From Mizuhopecten yessoensis (Eukaryota), in assembly GCF_002113885.1 (NCBI RefSeq), contig NW_018408802.1, positions 669,259-733,258 on the forward strand: a DNA stretch of 64,000 nucleotides. The letters are read 5' to 3'. Positions 46,673 to 47,914 of this stretch are shown here, piece after piece. How positions within the stretch are numbered: position 1 is the stretch's first letter; each line of letters opens with the position of its first letter. A model generated the notes under the pieces. The model had not been told where the DNA came from and ran no database searches. It worked only from the letters and a program-made list of their open reading frames with translations. A program made the translations under genes and the position numbers.

Positions 46673-47914
46673 ATGAAGAGTAACAAAGTTCACCCTAAAA
46701 ACTCTGTGCATACACTGTCCACGTTTGCTCATTGGGATCCCGAATCTGGCATTTCCTCTGACGACAGTAAAAAGTCCAGGACACGGGTACCGAGAATTTA
46801 CGTGGTCTCTATGGTAGCTTTCTTGTTCATTGCAGCCGTTTTGATAGCGGATATCTACATAGATTTATCTGAAATTTATATATTTCAGGATATGAGAGTA
46901 AAATTTAAGTTAGGTTACGATCAAATATTTGATGTATTGAACATCTTGAAATGTGAACTTGCAACTTCCTTGACAGACCGTTTCAGTGCCTCACTACATA
47001 ACGAATCGTCATCGTGTGGTATCAATGATAAATACGTCTTACCCTTTCTTAATATAAACCGTGTATGCAACTCTAGTTCATCACAAGGTGACCTTCAAAG
47101 TTTATGTGAACTTTTTGACATGTGTCCAATAACAAGTAGCAAGTGCAATATATGTGATACAATGCTGTCTTTACAGACTATAGAGAAAAATGTCGTAAGT
47201 ACAACGAAAGCTTATATTAACGATTTGTCTATATCAAAATTTGGCCTTCTCCACCAGATGGGAGAATTATTTGAAAGTGAAACTATTTTGTTACTTGATG
47301 CCATTTATTGCATAGAACATAATTGTGATACAAATATTTCAGATACATTAAAGTATTATCATACTTCAAAGCAATTCGTGCTAATGGACCTACAAAAAAT
47401 GCGCCCGTCATTTCCTATCTGGAGTTCGTTAACAAAAGGTAATATATCAATCTCGTCTCGGTGTACAGACTTTCGTAAAGCAGACTTTACATTTCTGTGT
47501 TATGTTTACAATATATTTCATTTAAATGAATACCTCGAACAAGAAATTCTGGCACTAAAATCAGCATTTTTATACGAAGTAGATAGTGATGAAGACTCTG
47601 ACATCATACGTGTTATTATCCGATCCTTTCTATGCGTTTTTATATCTGGAACCATTTTTGTTATTCTCCAACAATCCAGAGCTGTGAACACTAAATTCTA
47701 TCAGTTTGCCGTCCAGTTAAATGATAAAACGCAGGAACTTGAGCAGAAGAAGAAAGTAACCGAGGAACTTCTGTACCAAATGATCCCAAAGTCAATAGCT
47801 CACCAACTACAAAACAAGGAAAAGATCTCGGCAGAGTTCTTTGACGCAGTGACAATATTCTTTAGTGACATTGTCGGATTTACCTCTATATCTGCCCGAT
47901 GTTCTCCAATGCAG
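46673..47914 (+). CDS. Guanylyl cyclase exon 1: N-terminus, TM1 (~46796-46861), Cys-rich loop, TM2 (~47603-47668), coiled-coil helix, start of catalytic domain
   Basis: 414 open codons with two hydrophobic segments. [25 protein letters not shown] is the typical pre-cyclase helix. Ends ...SPMQ|gtttga. An additional upstream exon cannot be excluded. Confidence 0.9.

Follow-up and report, generated by a model that had tools for sequence, protein, structure and literature searches.

Guanylate cyclases with two membrane helices and a NIT domain (NIT-GCs) were described in animals by Moroz et al. 2020, who state that NIT domains were lost in vertebrates (PMC7400543). Jokura et al. found that one of these enzymes, NIT-GC1, gives NO-dependent cGMP, and they list Chordata without NIT-GCs (10.1101/2023.08.02.551600). 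On the bacterial side, both arginines are present in NasR (PMC8199190; PMC7496416), and replacement of the arginine abolishes sensing in sensors of the NarX/NarQ type (PMC8199190). Our findings place beside these systems a gene in a 64,000-nucleotide stretch of DNA from the scallop Mizuhopecten yessoensis (the window). It belongs to an old group of bilaterian cyclases and is not an ordinary NIT-GC; its cysteine-rich loop is most likely a cryptic derivative of the NIT domain that lacks the arginines. The reading that we prefer, with a probability of about 0.55 for the whole of it, is that a diverged, disulfide-braced NIT fold that has lost its arginines gates cGMP synthesis through a ligand other than nitrate; it draws on sequence comparison and a predicted structure. 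A disulfide-stabilised NIT derivative was one of two possibilities raised in the preliminary description of this locus, and a cysteine-rich derivative without the ligand arginines is now supported by a fold search, by NIT signal in relatives and by the register of the first motif.

The scallop gene lies on the forward strand and consists of six exons with GT-AG introns that together give one open 867-aa protein. The coding part of exon 1 (46673..47914, Met1-Gln414) specifies the N-terminal tail, the first membrane helix (TM1), the loop, the second membrane helix (TM2), a coiled coil and the start of the cyclase; it sits inside a 431-codon ORF (46625-47920) and a GT donor follows immediately. 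The cyclase continues through exon 2 (52038..52169, with E439 and D443), exon 3 (57077..57188), exon 4 (59800..59898, with C511, N518 and R522) and exon 5 (60900..60991), and exon 6 (61530..62456) carries its end, a group-specific motif at residue 579, an acidic tail and the stop. The catalytic and specificity set of a class III guanylate cyclase is complete (D399, E439, D443, C511, N518 and R522), where we take D399 and D443 to be the metal-binding aspartates, E439 and C511 to be GTP-specific, and N518 and R522 to act on the transition state. By hydropathy, TM1 covers about residues 43-63 (46799..46861, within model helix 38-108) and TM2 residues 314-332 (47612..47668), with Kyte-Doolittle peaks of 2.5 at residue 45 and 2.4 at residue 314. 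Between them lies the loop, an open stretch of 247 aa (residues 64-310; 46862..47602) with a predicted NIT-like helical fold. The N-terminus is probably cytoplasmic because basic residues precede TM1, and the loop is placed outside the cell because basic residues adjoin both membrane helices on the sides away from it. A coiled-coil signalling helix, seen in the model, directly follows TM2 (47669..47812); Pfam detects on exon 1 the C-terminal part of HNOBA (residues 341-379, E 1e-07) and the start of the guanylate cyclase. There is no kinase-homology domain before the cyclase, and TM2 lies 81 residues from the cyclase as compared with 78-85 in insect NIT-GCs. The gene is thus predicted from its sequence to encode a two-pass membrane guanylate cyclase that makes cGMP. 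Two database models (P0004 and P0008, window 46673-62456) are identical to parts of this gene, from residue 243 and residue 337 respectively, neither includes TM1, and the loop is wholly or mostly missing from them, which is partly why the layout has been overlooked.

The gene and its surroundings have further features. The C-terminal tail contains a 39-bp tandem repeat of 4.6 copies (62118-62297) that encodes an acidic 13-residue unit, most with one Cys. Intron 1 holds a dispersed repeat (49250-49780) to which numerous RNA reads and contigs fit in part, with similar pieces upstream near 44860-45430. A weak Pfam SPP match on the reverse strand (11265-11582, E 0.004) falls below the cut-off in a frame that includes simple repeat and is probably spurious. 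In two raw RNA runs (about 19% of reads sampled) no reads fell on the exons examined, and two contig sets of presumed RNA gave only short unspliced pieces at the gene; exon 3 was outside both comparisons.

The nearest other protein is that of Argopecten (P0003), which has the same N-terminus. A search with its TM2-coil-cyclase portion returned 7,272 matches. Of the 120 listed, 6 are insect proteins that carry Pfam NIT, 17 are invertebrate proteins that lack it (from bivalves, gastropods, a chiton, annelids, a brachiopod and a sea urchin) and 97 come from vertebrates (fish, amphibians, reptiles and birds). No mammal is named among these 120, and we are aware of no human cyclase with two passes. 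Three Anopheles models (P0006, P0007 and P0009) are about 1,300 aa long, and P0006, with two NIT and two cyclase stretches, is either a tandem fusion or the product of merged gene models. Trees were built from 225-226 columns of coil and cyclase with 29 and 17 of the 114 members, picked for taxon spread, together with cyclases of the scallop's own genome stitched from exon matches; four (29-member tree) or seven (17-member tree) of the latter that were gappy, degenerate, long-branched or near-duplicate were left out. The group forms one side of a branch in both trees (94/94 with 29 members, 97/93 with 17), its branching roughly follows the species tree, and the scallop gene is sister to Argopecten inside the bivalves. 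On these trees the gene falls into a single bilaterian group of cyclases, which has members in molluscs, annelids, a brachiopod, a sea urchin and vertebrates. Full-length members have two membrane helices, loops with median lengths of 258-270 residues and a median of 7 Cys; none of 32 members has a Pfam NIT match.

The vertebrate loops retain remnants of the NIT motifs. Their first motif reads L-Q-x-x-R, with the three named residues in 69, 69 and 68 of 72 loops, and the residues that precede the second motif are also kept (W in 72/72, E in 68/72), while the second Arg is absent; six cysteines are nearly invariant. Profiles of the two NIT motifs peak at these columns (p 0.034 for motif 1 and 0.27 for motif 2), with a spacing of 125 columns between the peaks as compared with 121-124 in canonical domains. 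This bears on the best-surviving alternative, one we nonetheless consider improbable, in which a NIT-derived loop senses nothing and acts as a scaffold for folding or trafficking, with the cyclase constitutive or controlled from inside the cell, such as by way of the conserved post-cyclase motif. Among the matches listed, that motif occurs in 110/114 group rows and 0/6 NIT-labelled rows. The pocket residues vary between lineages, the loops of the two scallops are identical at 75/141 positions as against 92% for the coil-cyclase region, and the Argopecten database model is without about 100 loop residues, all of which would suit a scaffold. Against this stand the loop length, which is steady near 250-270 residues across the group, and the near-invariance of the vertebrate Q, R, W and E and of the six cysteines, which suggests that a binding surface has been maintained. 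The gap in the Argopecten model (P0003, opposite window 47282-47580) begins just past the Glu equivalent to E203 and could reflect either a faulty annotation or splicing within the exon.

Descent of the loop from a NIT domain, which we regard as very probable, is not evident from the scallop sequence itself. The Pfam check proposed in the preliminary description gave no strong NIT match with intact arginines, and indeed no match to PF08376 at E<10, where 6/6 canonical controls match. A profile of 11 canonical NIT loops scored the scallop loop at 0.1 bits, a joint scan for both motifs gave p 0.47, and hhalign against NIT returned a probability of 0.2%. Searches with the loop by itself matched nothing beyond the Argopecten protein, a fragment of the scallop gene and a bacterial protein (P0005, E 2e-06); the last was rejected as spurious, as the match runs over a Cys-containing repeat of a repetitive protein. 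No paralogue of the loop was found elsewhere in the scallop genome. Ordinary NIT-GCs are readily detected in that genome, where Pfam NIT has 13 matches, 12 of them above the cut-off and none in the window. Q-x-E-R and G-x-E-R are invariant in nine aligned paralogue frames, and a profile of these nine finds NasR (4AKK) at E 1.8e-07. The tools thus recognize ordinary NIT-GCs in this genome, and the loop studied here is different. On the same contig, about 340 kb distant and on the reverse strand, is one canonical NIT-GC (L010, G000:C5475:374321-374743), which the tree places in another NIT subgroup. A further locus (L005/L057, G000:C5424:237208-247900) has intact NIT motifs and several altered cyclase catalytic positions, and is possibly, to judge from its sequence, an inactive regulatory partner.

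The NIT signal becomes visible in relatives of the scallop protein. With the canonical profile, two of eight invertebrate loops, those of the brachiopod Lingula (22.9 bits) and the urchin Diadema (17.1 bits), score far above a maximum of 6.1 in 200 shuffles, and in both the second NIT motif is aligned, with Leu or Met at the Arg position. None of the 72 vertebrate loops exceeded shuffles against this profile, hhalign of the vertebrate loops with NIT gave E 0.17, all six hhalign pairs of loop profiles were non-significant, and adding Lingula and Diadema to the profile still failed to capture the scallop and vertebrate loops. In the ESM Atlas the first match was a eukaryotic NIT cluster for both the sturgeon region (0.92, 186 features) and the scallop region (0.89, 167 features), the latter a lead only. 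On the cyclase side, the group joins canonical NIT-GCs with support of 88/82 when rooted on presumed soluble cyclases, and a rival topology that places it with the other membrane cyclases stands at p-AU 0.163 and so is not rejected; the sequence tie is a moderate one. Against the tie also counts the intron after residue 414, a position at which several presumed receptor cyclases are likewise interrupted and through which the canonical NIT-GCs of the scallop genome read.

Structure prediction extends the comparison. A single-sequence AlphaFold model was discarded (pLDDT 33.8). An alignment of 83 group members, with no canonical NIT protein among them, gave an all-helical model with pLDDT 73, and the non-helical fold of a known receptor ectodomain, considered at the outset as a contrary outcome, was not obtained. 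The alignment behind the model is uncertain, because similarity between the scallop loop and those of vertebrates falls short of significance (1.1 bits). Helices span residues 38-108, 119-134, 138-147, 159-184, 191-216, 222-243, 248-266 (broken) and 273-370. The model predicts two helical bundles as in NasR, in which helix 1 continues TM1 and the last helix runs into TM2 and the coiled coil. VIA-align ranked NasR (4akk) first among 48,161 chains (model 54-309 on chain 9-287, 230 aligned residues, rmsd 4.9) at Z 9.9, below the value of about 13 advised for helical bundles, under which a match may reflect a common arrangement; the next-ranked chain reached Z 8.4. Foldseek gave no match at E<=0.001; among the 139 chains of its own that were re-aligned, which did not include NasR, a NarQ fragment (5jeq) reached Z 6.3.

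These results define a second alternative, to which we give less credence than to the scaffold, namely that the loop is an unrelated helical ectodomain whose likeness to NIT comes from a common way of packing helices into bundles, together with the membrane helix on either side. The missing direct sequence and Foldseek matches, the middling Z of 9.9 and the unrejected alternative tree would all agree with it. Against it, two other members of the group, Lingula and Diadema, score far above shuffles with the NIT profile, the vertebrate motif remnants stand at canonical spacing, and NasR, named beforehand, ranks first over the whole domain.

Within a NIT-derived fold, the cysteines are the most conspicuous change. 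The count of 11 given in the preliminary description is right for the 247 aa between the membrane helices, and has P=0.0008 to 0.05 under assumed backgrounds of 1.4-2.5%, where canonical NIT loops (n=11) have 0-1. The four sequons it reported (NES, NSS, NIS and NIS) are present and are not above chance (shuffle mean 2.4, P(>=4)=0.21), and canonical NIT loops have a median of 6; at the level of sequence, cysteines and not sequons thus appear distinctive of the scallop loop. Of the amphipathic patterning described beside the membrane helices, the long helices on both flanks appear in the model, and the hydrophobic moments for helical periodicity reach a modest 0.30-0.34 near TM1 and 0.25-0.27 near TM2. 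Conservation of the cysteines among homologues, to which that description had also looked, holds for only three of the eleven. C132, C145 and C151 (47066..47125) are Cys in 69, 72 and 70 of 72 vertebrates and in 4, 8 and 8 of 10 invertebrates (alignment A2). Argopecten shares six of the seven in its alignable part, the exception being C94; the last four lie outside that part and are not kept in other members. The loop would likely be braced by disulfides.

The putative pocket has changed as well. At the place of motif 1 (residues 85-100, 46925..46972; register inferred) the loop reads NILKCEL, as first noticed, and Q/E-x-E-R occurs nowhere in it. The best register, K93-C94-E95-L96, scores 0.7 for E95 as against -7.6 for a register on D102/R103; it puts K93 for Gln, keeps E95 and leaves Leu (L96) at the site of the first Q-x-E-R arginine. 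Alignment A2 agrees, with K93 on the vertebrate Gln and L96 on the vertebrate Arg; a second alignment is shifted by two turns and has F104 under the vertebrate Arg column. R103, common to scallop and Argopecten, is a candidate first Arg in the less favoured register. The model helix 191-216 (47243..47320) is the presumed equivalent of NIT helix 5, which holds motif 2. It has E198, aligned with the vertebrate Glu in a register that is not significant in its exact position, and E203; no Arg is found in any register between residues 131 and 243, so that the second G-x-E-R arginine is absent where the model assigns helix 5. The scallop loop has therefore likely lost both nitrate-binding arginines, as judged by alignment and model, and nitrate binding appears unlikely, because an Arg change abolishes NarX/NarQ-type sensing and NasR has both. 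The least probable alternative, that the protein still senses NO, nitrite or nitrate through a one-Arg half-site (in vertebrates; R103 in scallops) or a free thiol, can draw on Platynereis NIT-GC1, which requires its NIT domain to make cGMP on addition of an NO donor (10.1101/2023.08.02.551600), on the first Arg kept in 68/72 vertebrates and on the odd Cys number, which means that a monomer cannot pair all of its cysteines internally, but it is at odds with a scallop helix 5 that is without Arg in any register, with C94, the Cys within motif 1, being Phe in Argopecten, and with the two arginines of NasR (PMC8199190).

We thus favor a diverged NIT fold that answers to another ligand. The protein would be a homodimer, judging from what we know of two-pass sensors and membrane cyclases, and the ligand would enter a groove between helices 1 and 5 and shift these helices. 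The loop would then move helix 1 and TM1 against the last helix and TM2, and TM2 and the coiled coil would relay the shift to the cyclase dimer and so gate cGMP synthesis. With the Glu kept, and with Leu and probably Thr in place of the arginines, the groove would be acidic and apolar. We lean towards a peptide, a protein or a cationic molecule as the ligand, because the loop changes fast between lineages and the Cys scaffold and the cyclase are conserved.

We found no description of the group in the literature within reach of our search, outside which most subscription journals lie. Its invertebrate members may sit unremarked in the trees of Jokura et al., because the sequences there were gathered by cyclase domain (10.1101/2023.08.02.551600). 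Marker peptides of the group were not found in the accessible Moroz supplements, where long cells are shortened, and the available portions of PMC1435932 and PMC10061024 contain no mention of NIT domains that we could find. Our results suggest that the group challenges the published statement that vertebrates lost NIT-GCs, with one lineage surviving in them below Pfam's detection limit. For the broader claim, that from scallops to birds an ancient bilaterian receptor cyclase carries a NIT domain rebuilt as a disulfide-braced receptor for another ligand, overturning the statement of vertebrate loss, we see an even chance. What emerges is a candidate orphan receptor for cGMP signalling that is conserved among bilaterians and could be tested in zebrafish, medaka or chicken. 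If our reading is correct, this would be an unrecognised type of vertebrate membrane cyclase with an undiscovered ligand, and a clear example of animals putting a bacterial-type sensor fold for small anions to a new use. The graded decay of the motifs, detectable in brachiopod and urchin, reduced to a half-site in vertebrates and gone in the scallop, may be useful for studying how a ligand changes.

In comparison with known systems, the scallop protein resembles animal NIT-GCs in its two membrane helices round a loop of about 250 aa, its coil, its cyclase and the absence of a kinase-homology domain, and its group has a moderate phylogenetic affinity to them. It differs in that the scallop gene has no Pfam NIT match, has likely lost the arginines and has 11 Cys as against 0-1, and in that its group has its own post-cyclase motif and vertebrate members. 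Receptor guanylate cyclases (GC-A to GC-G and Gyc76C, the database label of P0008) have a homologous cyclase with the GTP-specific Glu and Cys, and peptide receptors have a Cys-rich, glycosylated ectodomain, as in the scallop loop. Receptor guanylate cyclases are single-pass proteins with a signal peptide and a kinase-homology domain, whereas the scallop protein has two passes and only 81 residues between TM2 and the cyclase. The four-helix nitrate sensors NarX/NarQ and McpN share the logic of a two-pass helical sensor; they differ in having a single bundle with a G-x-x-R site at the homodimer interface and in not belonging to the NIT family, and no G-x-x-R motif of the NarX/NarQ type occurs in the scallop loop. 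McpN, which had been offered as a NIT-type comparison, is a PilJ-domain sensor by the title of a reference in PMC8199190. NasR (PDB 4AKK), unlike the scallop protein a soluble bacterial antiterminator with both arginines, and 9% identical to the scallop loop, is the top structural match across the whole of that loop, and its reported eight-helix layout resembles the helix series of our model (PMC7496416).
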